Position numbers and translations under genes: made by a program. 64,000 nucleotides of DNA from Eubacteriales bacterium (GTDB taxonomy: Bacteria > Bacillota > Clostridia > Oscillospirales > CAG-272), in assembly GCA_045611685.1 (NCBI GenBank), contig JAZKXO010000026.1:18623-82622 (forward strand), read 5' to 3'. How positions within the stretch are numbered: the first letter of the stretch is position 1; each line of letters starts with the position of its first letter. Under the pieces are notes generated by a model, which made no database searches, was not told the DNA's origin, and saw nothing but the letters and a program-made list of their open reading frames with translations. Positions 4,218-62,944 of this stretch are shown piece after piece.

Positions 4218-6224
4218 ATGCCAAAGAAAACACCGGAATACAACGATCAATCCATCACTATGCTGAAGGGCGCGGATCGCGTGCGCAAACGCCCCGCGGT
4301 CATTTTCGGCTCGGACGGACTGGAAGGATGCGAGCACTCGTATTTCGAGATCCTTTCGAACGCCGTAGATGAAGCACGCGAGGGCTACGGCGACGTGATC
4401 ACCACGACCGTTTTCGCCGATCGCTCCATCCAGGTGGACGATCTCGGGCGCGGCGTTCCGCTCGACTACAACGAGACGGAGGGTCGCTACAACTGGGAAC
4501 TCGTGTACTGTGAGTTGTACGCGGGCGGCAAATACGCGAACAACGCTGCGGGGGCGGCGTACGAATTCTCCCTCGGTCTCAATGGACTTGGTGCCTGCGC
4601 CACGCAGTACGCAAGCGAATACATGGACGTATACTCCTACGCGGGCGGCGTCGTCTCCTCGATCCATTTCGAGAAGGGCGCACCCGTATCGGAACTCGTA
4701 AAAGAGCCGATCCCGAAGAAATCCGAGCGCAAATCGGGCACGACGGTCAAATGGCGTCCCGATCTCGAGGTCTTCACCGACACGGCGATCCCGCGTGCGT
4801 TCTTCGCCGAAACACTCAAAAAGCAGGCAGTTGTGAACGCGGGGCTTACGTTCGTTCTCCGTTTTGAGGAGGCAGACGGCACGTTCTCCGAGGAGAAATT
4901 CCTCTATGCACGCGGCATCACCGATTACGTGGAGGAGATCGCGGGCGACACCGCGATGACGGAGCCGGTGCTCTGGAAACTCGAAACGAAGGGCCGTGAC
5001 CGCGACGACAAGGACGAATACCGTCTGAAGGCGGAGATCACGTTCTGCATTTCGAGCAAGGTGAACATGCTCGAATACTACCACAACTCCAGTTTTCTGG
5101 AGCACGGCGGATCGCCTGCCGACGCGGTACGTCTCGGATTTACAAACGCGGTGGACAAAAAGCTGAAATCCGCCGACAAATACAAGAAAAACGAAGCGAA
5201 GATCCAGTTCCAGGACATCGAAGACTGTCTCATTCTCGTAACGAACAGTTTTTCGACGCAGACATCCTACGCAAACCAGACGAAAAAAGCGATCACCAAC
5301 ACCTTTATTAAGGAAGCGATGACCGCGTTTATCAAAGAACAGCTCGAGATCTACTTCCTCGAGCACCCCGTCGAGGGCGAGAAATTCCTCTCCCAGGTGC
5401 TCATCAACAAGCGCTCCCGTGAGAGCGCGGAGAGCACCCGCTTGAATCTCAAAAAGCAGTTGTCCGTCTCGGGCGGCGGCGATCCGACGAAATCGGTGGA
5501 GAAATTCGTTTCCTGCCGCTCGAAGGATCCCGCGAAGCGCGAACTCTACATCGTGGAGGGAGACTCGGCGCTCACGTCGGTCAAACTCGCGCGCGATGCG
5601 GAATTCCAGGCGATCATCCCCGTGCGCGGAAAAACGCTCAACTGTCTGAAAAGCACGTACGAGCGCATTTTCAAAAGCGAGATCATCGTGGATCTCTTGA
5701 AAGTCATCGGTTGCGGCGTGGAGCTGAAGGGCAAAATCAAAGGCGACACCGTGCCGTTTGATCTCGCGTCACTCAAATGGTCGAAGATCATCTTCTGTAC
5801 GGATGCGGACGAGGATGGCTTCCAGATCCGCACGCTTCTTCTGACGATCTTCTACCGCCTGTTGCCGACGCTCATCGAGGAGGGCAAGATCTACATCGCG
5901 GAATCGCCGCTCTTTGAGATCACGACGAAGGACGAAACGCTCTTCGCGTACAACGAGCCGGAAAAGGCACAGATCGTCGCACGGCTCGAAGCGGAGAAGA
6001 AGAAATACACGCTCCAGCGCTCGAAAGGTCTCGGCGAGAACGAGCCGGGCATGATGGCGAAAACGACGATGAATCCGGCGACGCGCCGACTCATCCGCGT
6101 AAATCCCGCGGATGCGGAAGAGACTGCGCGTATTTTCGAGACGCTTCTCGGCGACGATCTGCCTGCCAGAAAGGAATTCATCACGAAATACGGCGCACAG
6201 TACTGGGCAGACGCAGATATATAA
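4218..6224 (+). CDS. type IIA DNA topoisomerase, ATPase/Toprim B subunit (GyrB/ParE family)
   Basis: 668 aa with a GHKL ATPase N-terminus ([19 protein letters not shown]). Toprim motifs are [16 protein letters not shown] and [11 protein letters not shown], and the tail carries QRSKGLGEN. Confidence 0.88.
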
Positions 6225-6282
6225 TAATGGGGGTGCGGGGGTCGAAGGCCCCCGCACAAAATTACCGAAAAGGAGACGAACG

Positions 6283-8268
<1,986 letters not shown>

Positions 8269-8431: not shown

Positions 8432-11260
8432 ATGAACGAAATCATCCTCCGCGGTGCGCGGATGCATAACCTCAAAAATATAGACGTAACGATCCCACGG
8501 GACAAGCTCGTGGTGTTCACGGGACTTTCCGGCTCGGGAAAATCCTCCCTCGCGTTCGACACGCTGTACGCAGAGGGACACCGCCGATTCGTGGAATCGT
8601 TGTCCTCGTATGCCCGCATGTTCTTAGGGCAGCTCGACAAGCCGGACGTCGATTCCATCGAGGGGCTCTCCCCCGCGATCTCCATCGACCAGAAAACGAC
8701 GAGCAAAAACCCCCGTTCCACCGTCGGCACGGTAACGGAGATCCACGATTACCTGCGCCTTCTCTACGCGCGGCTCGGCGTGCCGCACTGCCCGATCTGC
8801 GGACGGGCGATCCGTCAGTCCTCCGTGGATGAAATCCTCGATTCCATCATGTCGATGGAGGAGGGCACGCGGTTTCTCGTTGTTTCCCCCCTCGTCCGCG
8901 GCAAAAAGGGACGGCACGAAAAGGTCTTCGCCGACGCGATCAAAAACGGATTCGTCCGCGCACGCGTGGACGGCGTCGTTTCCGATATCGTCGAGGACAT
9001 GGGTCTTGACAAAAACAAAAAACACACGATCGAGCTGGTCGTCGACCGCCTCGTTCTCAGGGAGGATATCCGCTCGCGACTGTCCGACTCCGTCGAGACG
9101 GCACTCAGGCAAAGCGGCGGCGATCTCGTGATCGTGACCGTCCCCCGCGAGGGGGATGCGACCGAGATCGCGTACTCCACGAACTACGCCTGCCCCGAGC
9201 ACGGCGGATCGTTCGGCGTACTTGAGCCGCGGCTGTTCTCCTTCAACAATCCGTTCGGCGCGTGCCCGCACTGCCTCGGCATCGGCGTGCTCCGCACCGT
9301 ATCGCCTGAGAAAATCATGCCCGATCCGTCGCTTTCCCTCTCCGAGGGCGGCATCGCGGTCAACGGCTTCAAGACGGTAACGCCCGATTCGTGGAACGGA
9401 CCGCTCATCATGGCGGTGGGGCGTGAGCACGGTTTTACGATCGATCAGCCGCTCGATTCGTTCTCCGAGGAAGCGATGCACGCTCTTTTGTGGGGAACGG
9501 GAGACGAACTGTACGACGTCGTACGCAGTTTCGGCAACGCCTCCAAGCGGCAGTTTGCCAAGTGGGAGGGCGTGATCCCGATCATCAACACCCGCGTGAA
9601 TATGAACTCCTCCGAGGCGGATTACTACGAAGCGTTTATGGACGAGACGGACTGCCCCGAATGCGGCGGGCGGCGGCTCAATCCCTCCGCTTTATCCGTT
9701 ACCGTGGGCGGCATGGATATTTCCTCCCTCTCCGCGCTCTCGATCAAGGACGCGCTCGATTTTCTCGAAAATCTCACCTTCACCGAAACGGAACAGGTGA
9801 TCGCGCGCGAGATCATGAAAGAGCTCAGGGCCCGCCTTTCGTTCCTATTGAACGTCGGGCTTGAATACCTGACGCTCTCCCGCCGCGCGGGCACGCTCTC
9901 CGGCGGCGAGGCACAGCGCATCCGTCTCGCCACGCAGATCGGCTCGGCGCTCACCGGCGTGATGTACGTTCTTGACGAGCCGTCGATCGGACTGCACCAA
10001 CGGGACAACAGCCGCCTGATCGGTACGCTCAAGCACCTCAGAGATCTCGGCAACACCGTTCTCGTCGTGGAGCACGACGAGGAGACGATGGAATCCGCCG
10101 ACTGCATCGTGGACATCGGTCCCGGTGCGGGCATCCACGGCGGCGAACTCGTCGCGATCGGCACGCCCCGTGAGATCATGGCGTGCAAACAGTCCGTCAC
10201 GGGTGCGTATCTCTCCGGCCGTCGAAAAATCGCCGTGCCGACGGAGCGTCGGGCGGGCAACGGGAAATCGCTGACGGTGTACGGCGCACAGCTGCACAAT
10301 CTCAAAAACATCGACGTTACGATCCCGCTCGGCTGTTTCGTTGCCGTAACGGGCGTGTCGGGCTCGGGCAAATCCTCGCTCGTGAACGGGATCCTGTACC
10401 CCGTTCTCGCCAAAAAACTGAACCGTGCCGTAACGACGGCGGGTAAACACCGTACAATCGAGGGCATCGAAGCGCTCGACAAGGTGATCGCTATCGACCA
10501 AAGCCCGATCGGGCGGACGCCCCGATCGAATCCGGCGACGTACACGGGACTGTTTGGCGATATCCGCGATCTGTTTGCGAAAACGCCCGCGGCAAAAATG
10601 CGCGGCTACGCGCCCGGCCGATTCAGCTTCAATACGAAGGGCGGTCGGTGCGAGGCGTGCGAGGGCGACGGCGTAAAGTGCATTGAGATGCATTTTCTCC
10701 CCGACGTGTACGTTACATGCGACGTGTGCCACGGCGCGCGCTACAACCGCGACACGCTGGAGGTAAAATACAAGGGCAAGAGCATCGCGGACGTTCTCGA
10801 TATGTCGGCGGAGGAGGCGTGCGAGTTTTTCGCGGATATTCCGAGAATCGGCAACCGCATCAAGACGATCTGCGACGTGGGACTCGGCTACGTGAAACTC
10901 GGACAGCCGGCGACCACCCTCTCGGGCGGCGAGGCACAGCGTGTAAAACTCGCGACGGAGCTCTCCAAACGCTCGACCGGACGGACGTTCTACGTCCTCG
11001 ACGAGCCGACGACGGGACTGCACTCCGCGGACGTGGAGAAGCTGATCTCTATTCTCGGCCGTCTCGTGGATGCGGGAAACACGGTTCTCGTGATCGAGCA
11101 CAATCTGGACGTCATCAAGGTCGCGGATCACATTATTGATATGGGACCCGAGGGCGGCGACGGCGGCGGTACGGTGATTGCCACGGGCACGCCCGAACAG
11201 ATCGCCGCGTGCGAGCACTCGTACACGGGGCAGTTCCTCCGTGGAAAGCTGGGAATGTGA
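8432..11260 (+). CDS. uvrA: excinuclease ABC subunit A
   Basis: 942 aa with two ABC ATPase modules ([14 protein letters not shown] and [10 protein letters not shown]; signature LSGGEAQR twice). Zinc-finger cysteines are CPxC and CxxCxGxG. Confidence 0.98.
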
Positions 11261-11287
11261 TAAATGGGGGCGCTGCCGCAATCCCCG

Positions 11288-11390
11288 CAAAGGGACTTTT
11301 GAAAAAGTCCCTTTGAATCCTCAAAACTTTTAAACCTATAAAAAAATCACGTCTGTGCAAAAATTCCGCATAGACGTGATTTTGTTTTTT
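11288..11390 (+). terminator. composite 3'-end module after uvrA: palindrome + linker + GTGC-core hairpin with T-run
   Basis: CAAAGGGACTTTTGAAAAAGTCCCTTTG (11288-11315), then linker aatcctcaaaacttttaaacctata, then ATCACGTCTGTGC-loop-GCATAGACGTGAT followed by TTTTGTTTTTT (11346-11390). Confidence 0.8.
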
Positions 11391-11424
11391 GAAGTTTTTG
11401 GGCTGAGGATTTTCCGGGTTTCTA

Positions 11425-11453
11425 TTGAATCTCACTCTGTTTTGTGATATACT
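11425..11453 (+). promoter_or_regulatory. sigma-A type promoter of RNA unit 1
   Basis: TTGAAT (11425-11430), a 17-nt spacer, then TGaTATACT with the -10 at 11448-11453. Confidence 0.7.
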
Positions 11454-11457
11454 ATCC

Positions 11458-11618
11458 TTGCTACACAATCTAATATTCAACCTTATTTGTGGGAAACTAC
11501 CTTGGTAAAAGGTGTTTTCTCTCTTTGCTCATACCTATAGATAGGCAGAGCTTGTGTCGCAACAATGAGGGGAACGCTTTTTCGGTGCGTTCCTTATTGG
11601 GGCGCACTTTTTTATTTT
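11458..11618 (+). ncRNA. structured RNA unit 1 (chimeric or degenerate copy) with intrinsic terminator
   Basis: The 5' arm is identical to unit 2. The 3' arm is replaced by acctatagataggcagagc, so the distal helix cannot form. Terminator GGTGCGTTCC-TTATT-GGGGCGCAC + TTTTTTATTTT at 11584-11618. Confidence 0.6.
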
Positions 11619-11679
11619 AACCGTATATCTTTAGCAGAAGGTGATAAAATGACGAGCACGGGGATTTTCCGGTTTTCTA

Positions 11680-11708
11680 TTGAAAATTCCTTCGTTTTAT
11701 GATATACT
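11680..11708 (+). promoter_or_regulatory. sigma-A type promoter of RNA unit 2
   Basis: TTGAAA (11680-11685), a 17-nt spacer, then TGaTATACT with the -10 at 11703-11708. Confidence 0.7.
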
Positions 11709-11712
11709 ATCC

Positions 11713-11870
11713 TTGCTACACAATCTAATATTCAACCTTATTTGTGGGAAACTACCTTGGTAAAAGGTGTTTCTCTTTTCCTCATACCCACAAAAGGTTG
11801 AGATTGTGTAGCAACAATGAGGGGAACGCTTTTTCGGTGCGCTCCTTATTGGGGCGCACTTTTTTATTTT
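11713..11870 (+). ncRNA. structured RNA unit 2 (best-paired copy) with intrinsic terminator
   Basis: P1 is TTGCTACACAATCT (11713-11726) paired with AGATTGTGTAGCAA (11801-11814), 14 bp perfect. The distal helix is CAACCTTATTTGTGGG/CCCACAAAAGGTTG. The apical loop holds an ACCTT-GGTAA-AAGGT mini-hairpin. CCTCAT (11780-11785) is complementary to ATGAGG (11817-11822). Terminator at 11836-11870. Confidence 0.7.
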
Positions 11871-11931
11871 AACCGTATATCTTTAGCAGAAGGTGATAAA
11901 ATGACGAGCACGGGGATTTTCCGGTTTTCTA

Positions 11932-11960
11932 TTGAAACTCCCTTCGTTTTGTGATATACT
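11932..11960 (+). promoter_or_regulatory. sigma-A type promoter of RNA unit 3
   Basis: TTGAAA (11932-11937), a 17-nt spacer, then TGaTATACT with the -10 at 11955-11960. Confidence 0.7.
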
Positions 11961-11964
11961 ATCC

Positions 11965-12126
11965 TTGCGGCACAATTTCATATTTTTGATTCTATTTAGG
12001 GAAACTACCTTGGCAAAAGGTGCTTTCTCTCTTTACTCATCCCTAAATGGAATCGAGATTGTGTCGCAACAATGAGGGAATTCACTTTTTCGGTGCGTTC
12101 CTTATTGGGGCGCACTTTTTTATTTT
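11965..12126 (+). ncRNA. structured RNA unit 3 / leader of the 60-aa ORF, with intrinsic terminator
   Basis: P1 is TTGCGGCACAATTT/AGATTGTGTCGCAA (14 bp including 2 G-U pairs). The distal helix GATTCTATTTAGGG/CCCTAAATGGAATC has a different sequence from unit 2 but the same pairing. Terminator at 12092-12126. Confidence 0.7.
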
Positions 12127-12157
12127 AACCGTATAACTTTAACAGAAGGTGATAAAA

Positions 12158-12340
12158 ATGACCCGCCAGGAGCTTGCACACATTTCAAACATACTGCGTT
12201 TATCATGGGCTGCCATATACACATGCAGCAAAAATAAGGATTCAATCGGGGAGGAGCTCTTTGAAGCGATCACCGATCCGTTGACGGAAATTTTGGAGCA
12301 GATCGTGGAGTTGGCAAAGCAACCGATCGACGACATATAA
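12158..12340 (+). CDS. hypothetical small protein (60 aa, predicted all-helical, no TM segment)
   Basis: RBS AGAAGGTGA lies 6 nt before the ATG at 12158. Product is MTRQELAHISNILRLSWAAIYTCSKNKDSIGEELFEAITDPLTEILEQIVELAKQPIDDI. I recognise no family. Confidence 0.55.
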   Translation: MTRQELAHISNILRLSWAAIYTCSKNKDSIGEELFEAITDPLTEILEQIVELAKQPIDDI

Positions 12341-12352
12341 AGAAAACAAAAA

Positions 12353-12445
12353 ATCACGTCTGTGCGTAATTTGGTGCACAAACGTGATTTTTATTTTTGT
12401 ATAAAAGTTTTTGGGGGCTGGGGGCTTTTTTCAAAAAGCCCCCAG
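12353..12445. terminator. bidirectional composite terminator module between the small ORF (+) and PFOR (-)
   Basis: ATCACGTCTGTGCG-loop-GCACAAACGTGAT + TTTTTATTTTT (12353-12399), then linker tataaaagttttt, then palindrome CTGGGGGCTTTTT-TC-AAAAAGCCCCCAG (12418-12445). Confidence 0.8.
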
Positions 12446-12457
12446 GTCGTATCTCTC

Positions 12458-15400
12458 TTACTTGTAGAGCTCGACGAACTTGGTGAGACGCTCGTACTTA
12501 GCCTTTGCGTTGGCATCAGCCTGTGCGAACAGTTCTTCTGCTCTCTCCGGGAATGCCTGCATGAGGCGGCTGTAACGGTTCTCGCTCTTGATGAACTCGA
12601 TATAGTCGCCGGTAGGCTCCTTGGAGTCGAGGGAGAAGGGATTCTTGCCCTCGGCCTTCAGTGCCGGATTGAAGCGGAACATCTGCCAGTAGCCTGCCTC
12701 AACGGCACGCTTCATCTCGAGCTGGCAGTTCTGCATCGTGCCCTTGATGCCATGCATCTCACACGGAGCGTAGCCGATGATGATGGACGGACCGTTGTAT
12801 GCCTCAGCCTCGGTGAGTGCCTTGAGCAGCAGATTCATATCCGCGCCCATAGCAACCTGTGCAACGTATACGTAGCCGTAGGACATAGCGATCTCGGCGA
12901 GGTTCTTCTTGCCGATTGCCTTACCTGCTGCTGCGAACTGTGCAACCTGACCGATGTTGGAAGCCTTCGATGCCTGACCGCCGGTATTGGAGTAAACCTC
13001 GGTATCGAATACCATGATGTTTACGTCCTCGCCGGAAGCGATTACGTGGTCAAGACCGCCAAATCCGATGTCGTAAGCCCAACCGTCGCCACCGAAGATC
13101 CATACGGACTTCTTAGCGAGGTAGGTCTTCTCAGCGAGGATCTGCGGAGCGATCGGGCAGCCCTGTGCGGCAGCCTTCTCGAGCTCGACGATGAGAGCCT
13201 CAGCGGCAGCGGTGTTCTCCTTGCCGTTGTCCTTCGTATCAAGGTAAGCCTTAGCAGCAGCCTTGAACTCGTCGGAAGCCTTGTCGGAAGCCATCATTTC
13301 CTCAACCATGCCGATCAGGCGGTTGCGGATTACCTTCTGGCCGAGGTACATACCGAGACCGTGCTCAGCGTTGTCCTCAAAGAGGGAGTTAGCCCATGCC
13401 GGACCGTGGCCGGTCTTGTTGTTTACGGTGTACGGAGTAGCCGGTGCGGAGCCGCCCCAGATGGACGAGCAACCGGTTGCGTTGGAGATGTACATTCTCT
13501 CACCGAACAGCTGGGTGATGAGACGTGCGTAAGAAGTCTCGGCACAGCCTGCGCAGGAGCCGGAGAACTCAAGCAGCGGCTGCTTGAACTGGCTTCCCTT
13601 GACGGTGGTGTTGATAAGCTCGGGCTTCTCGGATACGTTTGCAACAGCGTAATCCCACGGAGCCTGCTGGTCTTCCTGCGTCTCGCGGAGAACCATACGG
13701 ATAGCCTTCTTGTCGGTGCCGTCCTTCTCTGCCTTAGCAGTTACAGGGCAAGCCTTGACGCAGAGGGTACAACCCATACAATCCATCGGAGAGATTGCCA
13801 TGGTGAACTTGTAGTTGGTCTTGAGAACCGGCTTCTCGGTGAACTTGGTGTTTGCGGGAGCGGCGGCTGCCTCCTCCTCGGTCATAGCGAACGGGCGGAT
13901 GGTAGCGTGCGGGCAGACGAACGCACAGTTGTTACACTGGATGCAGTTCTCGGGGATCCACTCGGGAACGTATACGGCAACGCCGCGCTTCTCGGAAGCG
14001 GAGGAGCCCTGCGGGAACGTACCGTCTACGTAATCAGCGAATGCGGAAACGGGCAGAGAATCACCTGCCATAGCGTTTACGGGATTTACAACGGTGTTGA
14101 CGAACTTGTCAAGATCGGCTCTCTTGGACTCGAATGCGGCCTTCGGCGCATCTGCACCTGCATTTGCCCATTCTGCGGGAACCTTTACCTCAACGTATGC
14201 GTCGGAGCCTGCATCGATAGCGGCGTAGTTGAGATCAACGATTGCCTGACCCTTCTTGATGTAGGACTTGTATGCAGCCTTCTTCATGTAGTCGATCGCC
14301 TCATCCTTCGGCAGGATATTAGCGAGGGAGAAGAATGCGGACTGCAGAACGGTGTTCTTAACCTTCGCGTTACCGATCTTCTTCGTTGCGATCGTGGTAG
14401 CGTCGATGGTGATGAACTTCACGTTATTCTTAGCGATGTAGGATTTCACGGATGCGGGGAGGTTCTCCTCGAGGCCTGCCATATCCCAAGCACAGTCAAG
14501 AAGGAACGTACCGCCCGGCTTTACGTCGGAGATCATGTCGTACTTCTTGAGGTAAGAAGAGTTGTGGCATGCAACGAAGTCAGCCTTGTTGATGTAGTAA
14601 GGAGACTTAATGGGCTGATCACCGAAGCGGAGGTGGGAGATGGTGATACCGGAAGTCTTCTTGGAGTCGTACTGGAAGTACGCCTGGATGTACTTATCGG
14701 TGTGGTCACCGATGATCTTGATGGAGTTCTTGTTTGCACCAACGGTACCGTCACCGCCGAGACCCCAGAACTTGCAGGCGATCGTGCCGGCAGCTGCGGT
14801 ATCGGGAGCGGGCTTCTCCTCAAGGGACAGACCGGTTACGTCGTCGACGATACCGCTCGTGAAGTTTGCCTTCGGTGCATCCTTTGCCAGATTCTCGTAT
14901 ACGGCAAAGACGGAGGACGGCGGGGTATCCTTGGAGCCGAGACCGTAACGGCCGCCGACAACCTTGATGTCGCTTCTGCCGGTTACGTTGGGAGCCGCGA
15001 TAACGTCGTGGTACAGAGGCTCACCGAGAGAACCGGGCTCCTTCGTACGGTCGAGAACTGCGATCTTCTTAACGGTCTCAGGAATAGCGGCAGCGAGCTT
15101 CTCAGCTACGAACGGACGGTACAGACGAACCTTTACAAGGCCGACCTTCTCGCCCTTTGCGAGCATGTAGTCGATTACTTCCTCTGCTACGTCGCAGATG
15201 GAGCCCATCGCGATGATTACCCGGTCAGCATCCGGTGCGCCGTAGTAGTTGAACAGCTCGTAGTTCGTGCCGATCTTCTCGTTAACCTGATGCATGTAAT
15301 CCTCAACGATTGCCGGGAATGCATCGTAGTAGGGGTTGCACGCCTCACGGTGCTGGAAGAAGATGTCGCCGTTCTCGGCAGAGCCGCGGAGCACGGGGTG

Positions 15401-16033
15401 CTCGGGGTTCAGAGAACGTGCGCGGAATGCGGCGATCGCATCCTTGTCCACCATCTCTTTAAGTACGTCGTAGTCCCACGTCTCGATCTTCTGGATCTCG
15501 TGAGAGGTACGGAAGCCGTCGAAGAAGTTCAGAACCGGAACGCGGCCCTTGATCGTTGCGAGGTGTGCAACGGCGCCGAGGTCCATAACCTCCTGCGGGT
15601 TGGATTCAGCCATCATGGCAAAACCGGTCTGACGGCAAGCGTATACGTCAGAGTGATCGCCGAAGATGTTCAAAGCGTGAGAAGCCACGCAGCGTGCAGA
15701 TACGTGGATAACGCAGGGGAGAAGCTCGCCCGCGATCTTATACATGTTGGGGATCATGAGAAGCAGACCCTGAGAAGCGGTATAGGTCGTGGTGAGTGCG
15801 CCGGCTGCAAGAGAACCGTGCACGGCACCTGCCGCACCTGCCTCAGACTGCATTTCGACAACCTTAACGGTGTCTCCCATAATGTTCTTCAGTCCGCCTG
15901 CAGACCAGGTATCGGTTACGTCTGCCATTACGGAAGAAGGAGTAATGGGGTAGATGGCAGCCACTTCGGTAAACGCATAGGAAGCATGCGCCGCCGCGGT
16001 GTTGCCGTCCATGGAAAGTTTCTTTCTTGCCAT
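12458..16033 (-). CDS. nifJ: pyruvate:ferredoxin (flavodoxin) oxidoreductase
   Basis: About 1190 aa starting MARKKLSMDGNTAAAHASYAF. It has two 4Fe-4S motifs (CIQCNNCAFVCPHA and CMGCTLCVKACP) and a TPP-binding GGDGWAYDIG. RBS AGGAGG lies upstream of the ATG at 16033. Confidence 0.97.
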   Translation of the reverse strand: MARKKLSMDGNTAAAHASYAFTEVAAIYPITPSSVMADVTDTWSAGGLKNIMGDTVKVVEMQSEAGAAGAVHGSLAAGALTTTYTASQGLLLMIPNMYKIAGELLPCVIHVSARCVASHALNIFGDHSDVYACRQTGFAMMAESNPQEVMDLGAVAHLATIKGRVPVLNFFDGFRTSHEIQKIETWDYDVLKEMVDKDAIAAFRARSLNPEHPVLRGSAENGDIFFQHREACNPYYDAFPAIVEDYMHQVNEKIGTNYELFNYYGAPDADRVIIAMGSICDVAEEVIDYMLAKGEKVGLVKVRLYRPFVAEKLAAAIPETVKKIAVLDRTKEPGSLGEPLYHDVIAAPNVTGRSDIKVVGGRYGLGSKDTPPSSVFAVYENLAKDAPKANFTSGIVDDVTGLSLEEKPAPDTAAAGTIACKFWGLGGDGTVGANKNSIKIIGDHTDKYIQAYFQYDSKKTSGITISHLRFGDQPIKSPYYINKADFVACHNSSYLKKYDMISDVKPGGTFLLDCAWDMAGLEENLPASVKSYIAKNNVKFITIDATTIATKKIGNAKVKNTVLQSAFFSLANILPKDEAIDYMKKAAYKSYIKKGQAIVDLNYAAIDAGSDAYVEVKVPAEWANAGADAPKAAFESKRADLDKFVNTVVNPVNAMAGDSLPVSAFADYVDGTFPQGSSASEKRGVAVYVPEWIPENCIQCNNCAFVCPHATIRPFAMTEEEAAAAPANTKFTEKPVLKTNYKFTMAISPMDCMGCTLCVKACPVTAKAEKDGTDKKAIRMVLRETQEDQQAPWDYAVANVSEKPELINTTVKGSQFKQPLLEFSGSCAGCAETSYARLITQLFGERMYISNATGCSSIWGGSAPATPYTVNNKTGHGPAWANSLFEDNAEHGLGMYLGQKVIRNRLIGMVEEMMASDKASDEFKAAAKAYLDTKDNGKENTAAAEALIVELEKAAAQGCPIAPQILAEKTYLAKKSVWIFGGDGWAYDIGFGGLDHVIASGEDVNIMVFDTEVYSNTGGQASKASNIGQVAQFAAAGKAIGKKNLAEIAMSYGYVYVAQVAMGADMNLLLKALTEAEAYNGPSIIIGYAPCEMHGIKGTMQNCQLEMKRAVEAGYWQMFRFNPALKAEGKNPFSLDSKEPTGDYIEFIKSENRYSRLMQAFPERAEELFAQADANAKAKYERLTKFVELYK

Positions 16034-16191
16034 GTTTGGAAATCCTCCTAAAAAATATGTATATGACATGCGCGCAAAAATGCGCATCTTCATTCATCCT
16101 ATATTATAACTCTGTTTTGCGCTTTTGTAAATATGATTTTGGTGATAAAAACGGAAAATTTTTCTTTTTTCGCTTGAAAAAGCAAACCTTT

Positions 16192-17016
16192 TCAATCTCC
16201 GCGCACGCGAACACTGATTTCGCCCGACGAAAGGGTATCGCTCGTGCCGTCGGGGAGACGGACGGCGAGCGTTCCGTCGTCGTTCACGCCGAGCGCCTCG
16301 GCGGGGTACTGCGTCCCACCGCGGTGGACGGTGATCGGAGAACCGATCACGAAACAGCGGCGGCGGTATTCGTCCATATAGGCGGTGTCCGTACCGATCG
16401 TTTCGTAAATGCGGAAGAACTGCGACAGAAACGCGGCGGCGATTTTCGCTCTGCCGTCGGGGATCGGCTCGTCGAGAAGCGCGCCCGCGATCTGTCGGAT
16501 CTCTTCGGGGAATCCGCCGTCGGGCTCCGTTACGTTCACGCCGATGCCGAGGACGGCGTATTCGAGCCGTTCTCCGTCCGCCGAAAGGGCGGATTCCGTA
16601 AGGATTCCCGCGATCTTTTTGCCGCCAAGGTACAGATCGTTCACCCATTTGATAAGAGCGTCCTTGCCCGCAATCTCTCCGATCGCACGGGCGGCGGCGA
16701 CCGCGGCGGCGGTCGTAATACGGATCGCCATCTCGGGGGCGAAATCGGGACGGAGCAGCACGCTTATGTAGAGCCCCGTGCCGCCGGGGGAATAAAAGGA
16801 GCGCCCCCGTCTTCCGCGTCCGTTCGTCTGGGCGGCGGCTATGAGCACCGTACCCGCGGGTGCGCCCGCGGCCGCGGCTTCTTTGAGCGCCGTATTCGTC
16901 GAGGGGACGGTGTCAAGAACGCTGAGGGCGGCGATGGGCAAGCCAAGGGGCAGATACTGTCTCACGCGCTCGGCTGTAAGGATATCGGCGGTGATCTCTC
17001 TCGTCATCGGTGTCAT
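16192..17016 (-). CDS. birA: biotin--[acetyl-CoA-carboxylase] ligase (no obvious N-terminal HTH)
   Basis: 274 aa with AAAQTNGRGRRGRSFYSPGGTGLYISVLLRP (the GRGRxGR biotin-ligase signature) and KWVNDLYLGGKKIAGIL. Confidence 0.9.
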   Translation of the reverse strand: MTPMTREITADILTAERVRQYLPLGLPIAALSVLDTVPSTNTALKEAAAAGAPAGTVLIAAAQTNGRGRRGRSFYSPGGTGLYISVLLRPDFAPEMAIRITTAAAVAAARAIGEIAGKDALIKWVNDLYLGGKKIAGILTESALSADGERLEYAVLGIGVNVTEPDGGFPEEIRQIAGALLDEPIPDGRAKIAAAFLSQFFRIYETIGTDTAYMDEYRRRCFVIGSPITVHRGGTQYPAEALGVNDDGTLAVRLPDGTSDTLSSGEISVRVRGD

Positions 17017-29075: not shown

Positions 29076-29340
29076 ACAAAAAGAGAGCCGCCGCACTCCG
29101 TGCAGCAGCTCTGTTTTTCATATAAATACCCACCGTGCCGTGTGAACGGGAAGTTAGAAACCCTGCATTTGCAAGGTTGGTGCCCTCTCCCATCGTTTGT
29201 GCTCCCAACGTCCGCGGTATCGGTCAGATGAGCGATACGCGGGAGGTCTGCATCCCCTCGGGGAAGTCCGGGCTCCACTGGTCTATTGTGGGTTCAATTA
29301 CCCGCCCATCACAAACATAGCAGGCATACGCGCGCGTCTT
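29076..29340 (-). ncRNA. candidate structured RNA (unassigned), or a long structured 3' UTR of the DUF1292 gene, ending in an intrinsic terminator
   Basis: About 260 nt with no credible ORF. Minus-strand helices include GTTTGTG/CACAAAC, CCTCCCGCGTATCG-loop-CGATACCGCGG...GGAG, and CCTTGC-AAAT-GCAGGG. The terminator is AGAGCTGCTGCAC-GGA-GTGCGGCGGCTCT + CTTTTTGT (29112-29076). A second hairpin with T-run lies at 29042-29019. Confidence 0.4.
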
Positions 29341-60152: not shown

Positions 60153-60367
60153 GGGGGAGGGGCTTTTGACAAAAGCCCCTCCCCCGAGCCCCCTCTCCAA
60201 AACCTTTATGCTGAATTTCTGTTTTCGGCAGTGCGCAGACGGCTCGTCTGCCAAAAACCAAAAACACCGCCCTTGCGTATTTGTGCGCACGGACGGTGTT
60301 TCTTTTATAGGTTAAAGGTTTTGGGAAGGGGTACGGGGGAACCCCTTTTGTCAAAAGGGGTTCCCCC
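60153..60367. repeat. two composite 3' modules back to back (after SDR on +, after the lipoprotein gene on -)
   Basis: GGGGGAGGGGCTTTTGACAAAAGCCCCTCCCCC (60153-60185) + ccaaaacctttatgctga + a GTGCGC-core hairpin. Mirrored on the other side by a hairpin + cttttataggttaaaggttttggg + GGGGGAACCCCTTTTGTCAAAAGGGGTTCCCCC (60335-60367). Confidence 0.8.
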
Positions 60368-60385
60368 GCTGTTTTTTTTATTATA

Positions 60386-62944
60386 TTACGAATTCTCTGC
60401 TACGTACGTCGATACGCGATTCTGGATCAGCTTCACCGTTTCTTCGAGCGATTTCTGACCGGCGAAGTACGCACCTGCATCCTCTTTGATGATGCTCGTC
60501 ACGCTTTGATTCTGCCGCATCACACGGCTGACGGACTTGACGTAATCACGGAGCATCTCTGCTATCTCGCGATCGAGGAACAATACCTCGTCTCGGTAGC
60601 CCGGGTACGGGCTGGGCATACCGATGATGCCGCCGACACCCGTCGTAACGACGGCGATCTCCTTCTCTGCTGTGTCCGTCTCCTCCTCCACGGCGATCTC
60701 CGTTTCGGGGAGGGCGGTCGTCATTTCTACCGTGGGGAACGTCTCGGGGAGTACGGCGATGCCGTCATCGATAACGATATCCCCATTGCCGCCCATCATT
60801 TCCTCGTAGCGCTTCTTTTCCTCCTCGGCCTGGCGGATCGCCTCTTCCATCATGGCGTCGAGCGCATCCGTCCGAATCGGGAAATAATAGTTATTCTTTT
60901 CTTGATATTCTTTCGTAAGGAAGTAGCTCACGAACTGCCATGCGCCATCCTTGAGTGCGGTTTTCGAGCTGATCGCAAAGCTCATATCGCCGGGGATGAT
61001 CGCGCCGCCGTTTTCTCCGTCGGTCGGTGCGCCGACGAGGGTGATATCTCTCGTGTAGAACGTGTAGTTCACAAGGCTCGTATACACGTTGAACGAGGAC
61101 ATATACACCTGCTCGAGTGCCGCCAGATCCTCGCGGAAGCGGTTATCGTACTGCAGCCAGTAATTCTCGCCGTAGATGCCACTGTCATCCTTCGGCCGCT
61201 CGGGGAGCGATGCGACGAATGAAAGCAGATCGGAGAATGCAATCGAGTCAAACGAGCACGTGCCCGTATCGGCATCAATGAACTCCTCGTAACAGAAGGA
61301 AAGGAAGAGATCGAACACGTCCTCGCGGTAGAGATCGAAGAACACCTTCGTCGTCTCGGGCAGATTTCTCGCCCAGCGGGCGAAATCGCTCATCGTCCAC
61401 GAGGTACGGTCGCCCACGACGGACGTTTTGCCGGCGAGCGTCTGAATACTGAAGCTCGGGAAGATCTCGTAAAGCTTGCCGTCGACGTCAAGCGCTTCGA
61501 GCACGTTCGGGAGGAAATCGTCTCTCGAGAAGCGCTCGTCCTTATCAATGAGCGGATACAGATCGAGAAGAAGCCCCTTCGCGATGTACGATTCGATCGG
61601 CATATACGTGTTGGTCAGAAGAATATCAGGGCCGCGGCCGGCGATGATATCGTTGTTCATCGCGGTTACCGCTTTTTCAATCAGCTCGTCATAATTGTAA
61701 TCCTGACCATCTTCAAGGTAATCGTCCAGTTTGTACGTTCTGATGTTCACGCGGTACTCGTCGCTCTGCCGATTGAAGCGGACAGCCTCTTCGCGAATCG
61801 TCCAGTCGTCAGCCAGCACGGCAACGTCGATGATATACTTCGGAACGAGCTCATCCTCGGGCACGCGGTCGAGAATGAAGATCGCCTCGGTCTGGGTGAA
61901 CGAATCGTAGCCGTACGTTACGAATTTCTCGGGGGAGATGACCTTCATATTGTACGCGACGTTGTAGTTAAGGTCGGAGTTCATGAAGTTCAGAACCTCA
62001 ACCGCCGTTTTTGTCTCAAGATCAAATCCGTACACAGCAGTCTCGTTCATGAAGTAGAAGGTGTAGCCCTCTCCCTCAAAGAAGTTGTACATGTTATCGA
62101 AATAGTCGCCCTCCAGCTTCAGCGGCTCGCCGAGTACCGCCGTCTTCGTATCAAGCGGAATGAGGGAGAACACGTTTTTCGATCCGGTATAACCGCAGTG
62201 GAGGAAATACAGATCATCCCCGTCGGTGAGGCGATGCTGGATATAGCCGCTCGTGAGGTAATCCTTCGTATCGAGCTTTGTGAACGACTCGGCATCCGTC
62301 GGGCGGAGGAAGAGCACCTCTTCACCGGCATCGTATCCGCCGATGAGAAGAGAGCCGTCCCCACACACGGTGAGATTGTAAAGGCTGCGATACTCGCCCT
62401 CTGCCTGCGGCGCACCGAACACGTTTTGCTCCGTGAACGCCTCAATGATCGTGCCGTCTGCCGCCGTGTGCTTGAACGTATACTTCTCCGTCGAGGTGTA
62501 GGTGATCGGATCGTACGTGTAGGTGCACGTACCAACCCAAAGGGTACCGTCGGCGAGCGGCACACGCGTCATCTCGTACGTATGTACGTTCGGATCATCG
62601 TTTTTGAAAATATCCGCAGGATCGTCGATCGGCTCCTTATCGCGCGGCGGGGTAATGTCGGTGAGATTCGTGCCGTCCACGTCCATTTCGTAGATGACGT
62701 CCCAGCTTTCGTAGGTCTTCTCGTCGTAATGCGTACCGGTGATGCGGATCTTTTCCCCTTCGACAGAGAGATCGTACATCCAGCTCATGTTCTCAGGGAT
62801 CGGGATCTCCGTTATCCGATAGACATTCTCGAGCACCTGCTTTTCGGGCATTTTCTGTCCGCCGCCGCAGCCGAAAAGGGCAAGGGGTGTAAGAACGGTC
62901 AAAACGGCGAGCGCCGCTGCAGTAATTCTCCGTTTCATTTTCAT
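60386..62944 (-). CDS. large lipoprotein with C-terminal extracellular solute-binding (ABC SBP family 1-like) domain
   Basis: 852 aa with the lipobox LALFGC-GGG. The N-terminal ~330 aa domain is of unknown type, followed by an SBP-like region (IIAGRGPDILLTN...GLLLDLYPLI...). Confidence 0.7.
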   Translation of the reverse strand: MKMKRRITAAALAVLTVLTPLALFGCGGGQKMPEKQVLENVYRITEIPIPENMSWMYDLSVEGEKIRITGTHYDEKTYESWDVIYEMDVDGTNLTDITPPRDKEPIDDPADIFKNDDPNVHTYEMTRVPLADGTLWVGTCTYTYDPITYTSTEKYTFKHTAADGTIIEAFTEQNVFGAPQAEGEYRSLYNLTVCGDGSLLIGGYDAGEEVLFLRPTDAESFTKLDTKDYLTSGYIQHRLTDGDDLYFLHCGYTGSKNVFSLIPLDTKTAVLGEPLKLEGDYFDNMYNFFEGEGYTFYFMNETAVYGFDLETKTAVEVLNFMNSDLNYNVAYNMKVISPEKFVTYGYDSFTQTEAIFILDRVPEDELVPKYIIDVAVLADDWTIREEAVRFNRQSDEYRVNIRTYKLDDYLEDGQDYNYDELIEKAVTAMNNDIIAGRGPDILLTNTYMPIESYIAKGLLLDLYPLIDKDERFSRDDFLPNVLEALDVDGKLYEIFPSFSIQTLAGKTSVVGDRTSWTMSDFARWARNLPETTKVFFDLYREDVFDLFLSFCYEEFIDADTGTCSFDSIAFSDLLSFVASLPERPKDDSGIYGENYWLQYDNRFREDLAALEQVYMSSFNVYTSLVNYTFYTRDITLVGAPTDGENGGAIIPGDMSFAISSKTALKDGAWQFVSYFLTKEYQEKNNYYFPIRTDALDAMMEEAIRQAEEEKKRYEEMMGGNGDIVIDDGIAVLPETFPTVEMTTALPETEIAVEEETDTAEKEIAVVTTGVGGIIGMPSPYPGYRDEVLFLDREIAEMLRDYVKSVSRVMRQNQSVTSIIKEDAGAYFAGQKSLEETVKLIQNRVSTYVAENS

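Follow-up and report, generated by a model that had tools for sequence, protein, structure and literature searches.

What are the three head-to-tail units that lie between uvrA (8432-11260) and a convergent pyruvate:ferredoxin oxidoreductase gene (12458-16093) on contig JAZKXO010000026.1 of a Eubacteriales bacterium (GCA_045611685.1), and what might they do for the cell? The stretch of 64,000 nt that was analysed here is referred to as the window, and all coordinates are positions within it unless a contig is named. A preliminary description of the window had read the units as three promoter, structured RNA and terminator modules resembling a riboswitch or attenuator, and had left the RNA class unassigned. 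According to our analysis, the element belongs to a widespread, unclassified family of structured RNAs that is not peculiar to this locus. Based on sequence comparison and modelled folds, we propose with moderate confidence that each unit acts as a leader switch for a downstream accessory gene, in which terminator, antiterminator and anti-antiterminator pairings would be layered on top of each other.

The triple array

Tandem Repeats Finder reported one tandem array at 11407-12162 with 3.0 copies, a period of 252 and 88% matches, in line with the three tandem units and the periods of 255 and 252 bp described before. The units start at 11407, 11662 and 11914. Their mean column identity in the alignment is 91%, and the differences cluster in two blocks that coincide with the helix arms. 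Spacers, promoters and terminators are 89-100% identical, whereas the stems of units 2 and 3 share 56% identity. Each unit consists of an extended -10 promoter, an RNA of about 150-155 nt and an intrinsic terminator, all on the + strand. That every unit has its own promoter and its own GC-hairpin/U-run terminator was confirmed by promoter and terminator scans, which recovered all six sites, the promoters with the pattern TTGAAT/TTGAAA, 17 nt, TG-n-TATACT and the terminators with a 10-bp GC hairpin and a U-run. The promoters are located at 11425-11453 (unit 1, TTGAAT-17 nt-TG-n-TATACT), 11680-11708 (unit 2, TTGAAA-17 nt-TG-n-TATACT) and 11932-11960 (unit 3), the terminator hairpins of units 1 and 3 at 11584-11608 and 12092-12116. 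The terminator of unit 2, seen in both scan and fold, spans 11836-11870 (hairpin 11836-11860) with a 10-bp stem, the loop UUAUU and a U-run. The duplicated unit also includes the Shine-Dalgarno sequence and the ATG of the downstream open reading frame (ORF), and for this reason remnant 17-codon ORFs (MTSTGIFRFSIENSFVL), read from the sequence, are found in the spacers at 11649-11702 and, as a second copy, at 11901-11954.

The anatomy of the RNA can be followed in unit 2. In the fold, the 5' arm of the outer helix P1 (TTGCTACACAATCT, 11713-11726) is followed by J5, an unopposed 5'-side bulge made up of A and U only (AATATT, 11727-11732), and by the hypervariable 5' arm of the inner helix P2 (11733-11748), which was delimited by folding and partner swapping. 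Then comes a conserved apical domain (11749-11786), followed by the 3' arms of P2 (11787-11800) and P1 (11801-11814). The apical domain had been taken for a conserved loop of about 38 nt; its conservation is real, but it is a 10-bp hairpin, P3 (AAACUACCUU[GGUAA]AAGGUGUUU), with a CU-rich bulge on its 3' side. The 3' tail (11815-11835) comprises the linker CAAU, a switch strand that we call K (AUGAGGGGAACGC) and UUUUUC. The linker pairs with AUUG of the P1 3' arm, and K pairs either with the terminator 5' arm or with a strand termed L (11762-11785) that can take up the tail. In units 2 and 3 of the window, these switch strands read AUGAGGGG for K and CCUCAU / GGUG for L.

The leader RNA of unit 3 (11966-12122; 118 bits with the covariance model described below) is likewise intact and has a P2 helix of its own (GAUUCUAUUUAGGG / CCCUAAAUGGAAUC). 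Full-length folds reach -63.2 kcal/mol for unit 2 and -62.6 kcal/mol for unit 3, with z-scores of -8.9 and -8.5, and none of 200 shuffled sequences folded as well. The folds bear out that units 2 and 3 have distal helices of unrelated sequence, both of which pair, and also that position 5 of P1 switches from U-A in unit 2 to G-C in unit 3.

The bipartite helix had been claimed for each of the three RNAs and holds for units 2 and 3, but not for unit 1 (11459-11614; 117.1 bits), in which the rod of P1 and P2 is not formed. Its hairpin region folds at -27.2 kcal/mol, compared with -41 and -43 kcal/mol for units 2 and 3, and its full-length z-score is only -3.3. The 5' strand of unit 1 is identical to that of unit 2, and its 3' strand (ACCTATAGATAGGCAGAGCTTGTGTCGCAA) is identical to the one in the single unit of a related metagenomic contig, L002, where the ACCTATAGATAGGCAGAGCTTGTGTCGCAA strand has a partner of its own, a 5' arm of a third version. 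Because a 5' strand of the unit 2 type is thus combined with a 3' strand of the L002 type, unit 1 is, judging from its sequence, a defective recombinant joined within the conserved apical region.

A structured RNA family of gut Clostridia

No family of Rfam 15 matched the units at the gathering thresholds. At E<=10, the region 11250-12450 gave weak chance matches only, the best of which was Phe_leader with 23-27 bits against a gathering score of 55 and an alignment dominated by the terminator. The unassigned status therefore stands. Literature keyword and sequence-string searches, which included the first 200 of the 408 supplementary files of a human-microbiome structured-RNA survey (PMC8040213), yielded no description of this RNA within the material they covered. 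No catalogued family takes in the leader RNA.

Beyond the window, the RNA is common. When one genome per species was scanned for the 21-nt apical motif AAANTACCTTGGNAAAAGGTG, at least 119 stretches were obtained, and about 100 among the matches listed show the complete anatomy. These come from metagenome-assembled genomes (MAGs) of animal and human guts that are labelled Acutalibacteraceae, Oscillospiraceae, Ruminococcus, Faecousia, Eubacteriales or Clostridia; the remaining listed matches are chance occurrences in the coding sequences of unrelated phyla. From 26 members we built a covariance model, which found 121 copies in the window and 99 loci, 118 of them distinct, with scores of 117-126 bits for the three window units. 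The model detected no further clear copy in the window, its sole match off the array (60260-60388, 18 bits, E 0.055) turning out to be two terminator hairpins. Several genomes contain many copies on different contigs, with at least 8 in MAG SIG520. No match was obtained when one unit was compared by BLAST with phage and plasmid collections, a motif scan of IMG/VR gave one chance match on a giant-virus contig, and a locus-specific 25-mer had 0 matches in a JGI metagenome scan. A few members are divergent or degenerate and score 47-58 bits (L019 2251-2406, L052 5032-5196 (-), L069 2824-2997 (-), L051 7471-7596 (-) and L059 2916-3042 (-)), the last two apparently lacking a terminator. The family represents a new and well-supported class of structured RNA with more than 100 examples in poorly studied, mostly uncultured gut and rumen Clostridia.

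The members share a promoter, a rod-shaped hairpin, a tail and a terminator. Both promoter hexamers are good, with at least 4 of 6 matches in each, in 99 of 113 distinct upstream regions, the TG extension is present in 106 and the 17-nt spacer in 104. In 80 of the 113 the -10 hexamer ends 5 nt before the first model position, which belongs to P1, and since the promoter sits at a fixed distance we conclude that the RNA probably starts at the base of P1. The median lengths of P1 and P2 are 13 and 12 bp, giving a rod of about 25 bp. The two lengths are negatively correlated (r = -0.43), which suggests that the total length of the rod is held more tightly than that of either part. J5 is found family-wide as an unopposed 5'-side bulge with a median of 7 nt and 90% A/U. 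The apical domain is nearly invariant and forms a 10-bp hairpin (GGGAAAAUACCUU[GGUAA]AAGGUGUUUUCCUCU) followed by a CU-rich 3' bulge, and the 3' tail consists of a linker of about 7 nt and then GAGGGAAACACUUUUUCGG.

Sequence variation in the helices is compensated throughout the family. In the covariance-model alignment, 97.9% of the cells of P1, P3 and the terminator are paired, compared with 37-57% when the partner is slid, and double-sided changes were observed in 22 of the 28 modelled pairs, values that 0 of 500 shuffles reached. The outer part of P1 is semi-conserved, as UGCNACAC/GUGUNGCA or UACCACAC/GUGUGGUA, with clear double changes; the column pair 4/219, for example, is CG in 44, GC in 35, UA in 21 and AU in 7 members. 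P2 could not be aligned by MAFFT and was analysed sequence by sequence. When the partners of P2 and inner P1 were swapped, cognate arms paired at -15.9 kcal/mol and non-cognate arms at -6.6 kcal/mol, and only 2.2% of foreign partners were as good as the cognate ones. This confirms the helix whose sequence seemed free to vary, as had been proposed from the three copies. The terminator stem covaries as well, with double changes in 8 of 8 pairs, 99.7% of cells paired and -14.1 kcal/mol for cognate compared with -7.7 kcal/mol for swapped arms. Moreover, the rods contain 380 G.U pairs and 13 A/C single mismatches, and this excess argues for selection on the structure in the RNA of this strand and not on a DNA palindrome.

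In twelve loci (L027, L030, L038, L049, L081, L084, L086, L089, L101, L104, L105 and L115) a stretch of the promoter spacer (between -35 and -10) has a complement in the linker that follows P1, as in TCGGTTTT/GAAACCGA. This stretch is outside the unit's own transcript, and only in transcripts entering from upstream would it make P1 longer.

Tandem arrangement is a trait of the family as well. Arrays of 2-4 units occur in 13 of the 102 loci, with periods of 179-252 bp, L086 having four units and L019 three. The array backbones are mostly 84-95% identical, or 65-68% for pairs that involve the divergent first unit of L019. Stems within arrays are 41-61% identical; in the window array the value is 56-74%, units 1 and 2 sharing their 5' strand. 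The units of the arrays are intact, with hairpins of -34 to -57 kcal/mol, except for unit 1 of the window and the first unit of L109. We posit that such orthogonal stems would prevent misfolding and recombination between neighbouring units.

Alternative pairings and the proposed leader switch

The tail of the RNA can enter two further pairings. K is complementary to L, that is to the 3' strand of the apical hairpin and the CU bulge, with 91% of cells paired as compared with 47-75% when slid. The L:K duplexes have energies of -12 to -24 kcal/mol and are stronger than the lower part of the apical hairpin that they would displace. The pseudoknot between CCTCAT and ATGAGG that had been suggested for the window is part of this longer helix of apical strand and tail; the pairing stands, but AUGAGG lies 2 nt after P1 instead of directly adjoining it. 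Between K and the terminator loop, both included, the RNA folds at a mean of -8.3 kcal/mol, compared with -4.9 kcal/mol for shuffled sequences, and reaches -12 to -15 kcal/mol in members of the window type. The pairing of GGGGAACGC with the terminator 5' arm, likewise proposed before, holds family-wide and is compensatory in three divergent members (L019:2251-2406, L052:5032-5196 and L069:2824-2997). In these, the apical hairpin is altered, for instance to CGCAUUUU/AAAAUGCAUG, with parallel changes in K (AUGCGUUUUUU) and in the terminator arm. Their cognate L:K pairs reach -17.3, -13.6 and -20.4 kcal/mol, compared with -3.6 to -13.5 kcal/mol for canonical L with divergent K and -4.0 to -14.8 kcal/mol for divergent L with canonical K, the highest mixed values belonging to L069, in which pairing of L with canonical K is still fairly good. 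The cognate K:terminator pairs of the three members have -19.0, -12.7 and -12.9 kcal/mol.

The linker 5' of K matches the inner P1 5' arm and can pair with the inner P1 3' arm, as in CGGUUUG/CAAACUG, UCGGU/ACCGA and AAUUGU/ACAAUU. Support for this pairing is moderate by alignment columns (67% paired, 19-45% when slid), and partner swapping gave -3.1 for cognate and -2.1 kcal/mol for foreign partners. The pairing is clear only in folds of the 3' domain alone. With the 5' strand omitted, L:K forms in 112 of 113 members and has the linker:inner-P1 hairpin stacked directly onto it in 81 of 113; in this fold the 3' arm of P2 forms a bulge and the 3' arm of outer P1 the loop. The tail thus amounts to the 5' strand without J5 and the P2 arm. 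The two competing folds are the rod, with about -46 kcal/mol, and the tail-bound fold, with about -17 kcal/mol, the latter followed by U5.

In 82 of the 102 copies a co-oriented ORF with a Shine-Dalgarno sequence follows directly after the terminator. Its start lies within about 0-35 nt of the U-run, mostly 13-20 nt, leaving no room for a promoter of its own, and the gene is usually monocistronic. Among the first proteins downstream, a cluster of 23 comprises YspA/YAcAr SLOG-domain proteins (PF10686) of about 125 aa together with small Cys-rich proteins that cluster with them in BLAST; in addition, there are 21 Cys-rich peptides of 65-90 aa and 12 lipoproteins of about 140 aa, both without known family, 6 DUF4838 glycosidase-like lipoproteins of about 700 aa and assorted orphans. 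Searches of the downstream proteins against NCBIfam, PHROG and PADLOC returned nothing decisive, with one marginal PADLOC match (ShosA, E 0.003) for a SLOG protein. In the window, the candidate controlled gene is a 60-aa orphan ORF (12145-12340 including the Shine-Dalgarno sequence GAAGGTGA at 12145-12152, with the ATG at 12158). It belongs to no Pfam, NCBIfam, PHROG or PADLOC family, and its sole homologue cluster has 98% identity, with three differences in the bases that were compared, two synonymous and one non-synonymous. As a coding gene it is a weak candidate. The variable stems were also searched for targets. Towards the downstream translation start region they have no specific complementarity (-8.5 vs -8.3 and -11.1 vs -10.9 kcal/mol), matches elsewhere in their own loci do not exceed chance (4 of 116 units vs 3 of 116 controls), and no target of the variable helix arms was found within the window.

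Taken together, the units lie between a promoter and a promoterless co-oriented ORF, their terminator covaries and both antiterminator and anti-antiterminator pairings are available. Family structure, alternative pairings and gene context thus support the earlier description of a riboswitch- or attenuator-like platform. We propose that a strong sigma-70-type promoter would fire exactly at the base of a rod-shaped hairpin of about 100 nt, after which a short 3' tail, an intrinsic terminator and a small accessory gene would be reached. As this gene lacks its own promoter, its expression would depend on read-through. The central strand, composed of L and the 3' arms of P2 and P1, would pair with the 5' strand and form the rod, or alternatively with the 3' tail, forming a bulged hairpin followed by U5; a free tail would pair with the 5' arm and loop of the terminator and serve as antiterminator. 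Of these elements, the analysis establishes the existence and structure of the family, its alternative complementarities and its gene context. For the direction of the switch, we infer that a closed rod would leave the tail free to form the antiterminator and permit read-through, and that with the apical strand available the tail would be captured by L, so that the terminator could form and transcription stop. As the deciding factor, one could imagine a small ligand or a protein acting on the invariant apical hairpin and CU bulge, or an agent that removes or sequesters the 5' strand. A leader peptide was considered and rejected, since across members the spacing between the 5' end and the apical UAA does not keep to multiples of three and the start of the RNA is not preceded by a Shine-Dalgarno sequence.

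Several observations weigh against such a switch. A straight rod of 25 bp and a linker of 7 nt exclude L:K as a pseudoknot, so that the rod would have to bend at J5 or the 5' strand be removed or sequestered. As the rod forms first and is far more stable, capture of the apical strand by the tail is hard to explain. In the most frequent subtype the antiterminator, weak at about -6 to -7 kcal/mol, reaches no further than the top of the terminator. Partner swapping within the main group was uninformative for both L:K (-12.4 vs -12.1 kcal/mol) and the pairing of K with the terminator 5' arm (-9.2 vs -8.2 kcal/mol), the partners being too conserved, and the compensatory support for both pairings comes from the three divergent members. 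The downstream genes are heterogeneous and give no pointer to a ligand. Finally, the promoter and strong terminator of each unit and the maintenance of intact, divergent units in arrays fit free-standing small RNAs equally well.

A bolder version, in which we have little confidence, is a bistable switch that exploits the tail as a short copy of the 5' strand. Here, the decision would be made by removal or sequestration of the 5' strand, for which a 5' exonuclease, a protein or a trans RNA specific to the unit and invading via the A/U bulge might be responsible. If this were true, the free-sequence stems would give each unit its own address, and the terminated RNAs of arrays and dispersed copies might cross-talk in trans as one genome-wide RNA network, because L and K are interchangeable between members. 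Under the simpler leader switch that we prefer, the class would mark a regulon of small accessory genes that are so far uncharacterised, encode SLOG/YspA-type proteins, Cys-rich peptides and lipoproteins and would answer one common signal. Identification of this signal would provide both a new mechanism of the riboswitch or attenuator kind and a way to approach what these genes do.

Locus, rival explanations and known systems

In the window, the leader module together with the 60-aa ORF is a strain-specific insertion. Eight contigs with 99% identical UvrA have a spacer of only 188 bp and no module at this site, and the module is also missing in sister species (UvrA 89% or 87% identical). L002 contains one unit and the ORF, the window three units and the ORF. 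The insertion is flanked by a direct repeat of about 70 bp on the + strand, with a left copy at 11341-11408 (hairpin AAAAAATCACGTCTGTGC...ACGTGATTTT, then AAGTTTTTGGGCTGAGG) and a right copy at 12348-12424 that doubles as a bidirectional terminator between the ORF and the pyruvate:ferredoxin oxidoreductase gene. This repeat consists of a terminator hairpin and AAGTTTTTGGG..CTGRGG. The empty site has a single hybrid copy (L123 5411-5500), which suggests that the presence/absence polymorphism runs through recombination at the repeat. The three units of the window arose by duplication and recombination of modules inside the insertion. No mobile-element, reverse-transcriptase or CRISPR genes are located nearby, in agreement with the earlier statement that RT, Cas and TnpB genes are missing from the neighbourhood.

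The neighbouring genes have housekeeping functions and encode a GyrB/ParE-type topoisomerase subunit (4218-6224), UvrB (6112-8268) and a BirA-like biotin ligase (16192-17016 (-)). In an exact look-up, the 60/63-aa ORF, UvrA and pyruvate:ferredoxin oxidoreductase proteins of the window were not on record. The sole gathering-level Rfam match in the window is a 6S/SsrS RNA at 29123-29329 (-), with 50 bits against a threshold of 46.4. A composite intergenic element is present twice, at 11288-11400 and 60270-60390 (-), and contains in order a GC hairpin, CAAAAC(C)TTTAA(A)CCTATAAAA and a second hairpin with a U-run. These elements may belong to a dispersed, terminator-associated repeat family of the genome, and the first copy (11288-11400) gave a sub-threshold match to the 'trpB motif' (31 vs 59 bits). 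On the metagenomic contig L001 (1130-1459), a phosphatidylserine-decarboxylase gene is joined to the 3' half of a unit-2-type leader, from inside the CU bulge, and the 60-aa ORF; this arrangement is probably a chimeric assembly or a rearranged copy.

The arrays also invite an explanation without read-through, in which the units are free-standing 'sibling' small RNAs that act in trans via the CU-rich, anti-Shine-Dalgarno-like bulge or via L/K pairing with other members of the family. The terminated RNA of about 150 nt would then be the product and the ORF incidental or a matter of leakage. Every unit has a promoter at fixed distance and a strong terminator, copies in 13 of 102 loci differ in their stems yet stay intact and are thus maintained and not decaying, genomes may contain several dispersed copies, such as the at least 8 of SIG520, and, as far as pairing energy is concerned, L and K can be exchanged between any two members. 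This reading has to accommodate, however, that a Shine-Dalgarno ORF with no room for a promoter follows close behind the U-run in 82 of 102 copies, that compensatory changes keep the complementarity between tail and terminator 5' arm, which has no obvious use in an RNA acting only in trans, and that the variable stems match neither the downstream mRNA specifically nor their own loci beyond chance. We therefore regard it as unlikely on its own; a dual role as leader and small RNA is possible. It is also conceivable, if less probable still, that the triple array of the window as such is without function and reflects neutral unequal crossing-over in an inserted cassette, with only the last unit or none of them mattering. 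The one unit of L002, the empty site of the eight contigs, the broken recombinant in first position and the ORF start that was dragged along by the duplicated unit are all in keeping with this. Arrays with intact units recur, however, in 12 other loci and other genomes, and the stems of units 2 and 3 (56% identical, flanks 89-100%) are not those of simple recent copies.

We consider it highly improbable that the module is a repeat at the DNA level, such as a MITE/REP-like palindrome or a recombination site, or a ToxIN-like type III toxin-antitoxin system. Presence and absence between strains and the flanking direct repeat of about 70 bp would suit a DNA repeat, but stems of wholly different sequence are paired nevertheless, the 380 G.U pairs against 13 A/C mismatches indicate selection on RNA, and no transposase is encoded at the locus. 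A MITE or REP element was rejected as the units are not near-identical copies, their stems being 41-61% identical even within one array. Neither a DNA repeat nor ToxIN is favoured by the finding that the family was not found in phage, plasmid or IMG/VR collections. A ToxIN-like system would share the order of RNA repeats, terminator and protein gene; here, however, the units are about 150 nt long with promoters of their own instead of repeats of 34-36 nt, and the downstream SLOG proteins, lipoproteins and Cys-rich peptides have no similarity to ToxN/AbiQ and no significant PADLOC match. The type III systems ToxIN, CptIN and TenpIN were rejected on the same grounds, namely the period of 252 bp, the promoter per unit and the lack of a ToxN/AbiQ Pfam match. 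A T-box leader was rejected because RF00230 gave no match even at E<=10 and SLOG proteins, Cys-rich peptides and lipoproteins are encoded downstream. The view that the RNA is neither T-box nor ToxI-like is thus upheld.

Among known systems, the family resembles ToxIN in the order of promoter, repeated structured RNA, terminator and protein gene, but its repeat unit of 180-255 bp has its own promoter, where ToxIN has repeats of 34-36 nt, and the proteins downstream are diverse, several of them secreted lipoproteins, and not ToxN-like. Sibling small RNAs such as LhrC1-4 of Listeria and the streptococcal csRNAs are encoded in arrays; they share with our units the tandem copies with own promoter and terminator and the CU-rich, anti-Shine-Dalgarno-like motifs. 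Sequence similarity to them and Rfam matches are lacking, and different from these RNAs a promoterless ORF follows at 13-20 nt and the 3' tail is complementary to the terminator arm. In Bacillus anthracis, two complete riboswitches for thiamine pyrophosphate (TPP) are arranged in series. Here, too, complete sensor and terminator units stand head to tail before one gene, but each unit has its own promoter and the stem sequences within an array are unrelated.

The closest parallels to the proposed switch are multi-hairpin attenuators and riboswitch platforms such as the PyrR-controlled pyr leaders, which have an anti-antiterminator, an antiterminator and a terminator, and pseudoknot riboswitches. 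Like these, the units are promoter-proximal 5' leaders with a terminator directly before the Shine-Dalgarno sequence, one strand (K) can choose between a conserved upstream partner and the 5' arm of the terminator, a conserved, structured sensor-like domain shows covariation, and several copies per genome precede different genes. Unlike them, the family matches nothing in Rfam, and the genes that would be controlled are small, heterogeneous and accessory. An extra layer is added by the 25-bp rod of free sequence, which is very stable and encloses the sensor strand, the tail repeats the 5' strand of that rod in shortened form, and the promoter lies inside the conserved module. The architecture as a whole is unusual, with a promoter integrated into the module, a long rod whose sequence is free, a tail mimicking the 5' strand and arrays in which the units are orthogonal.

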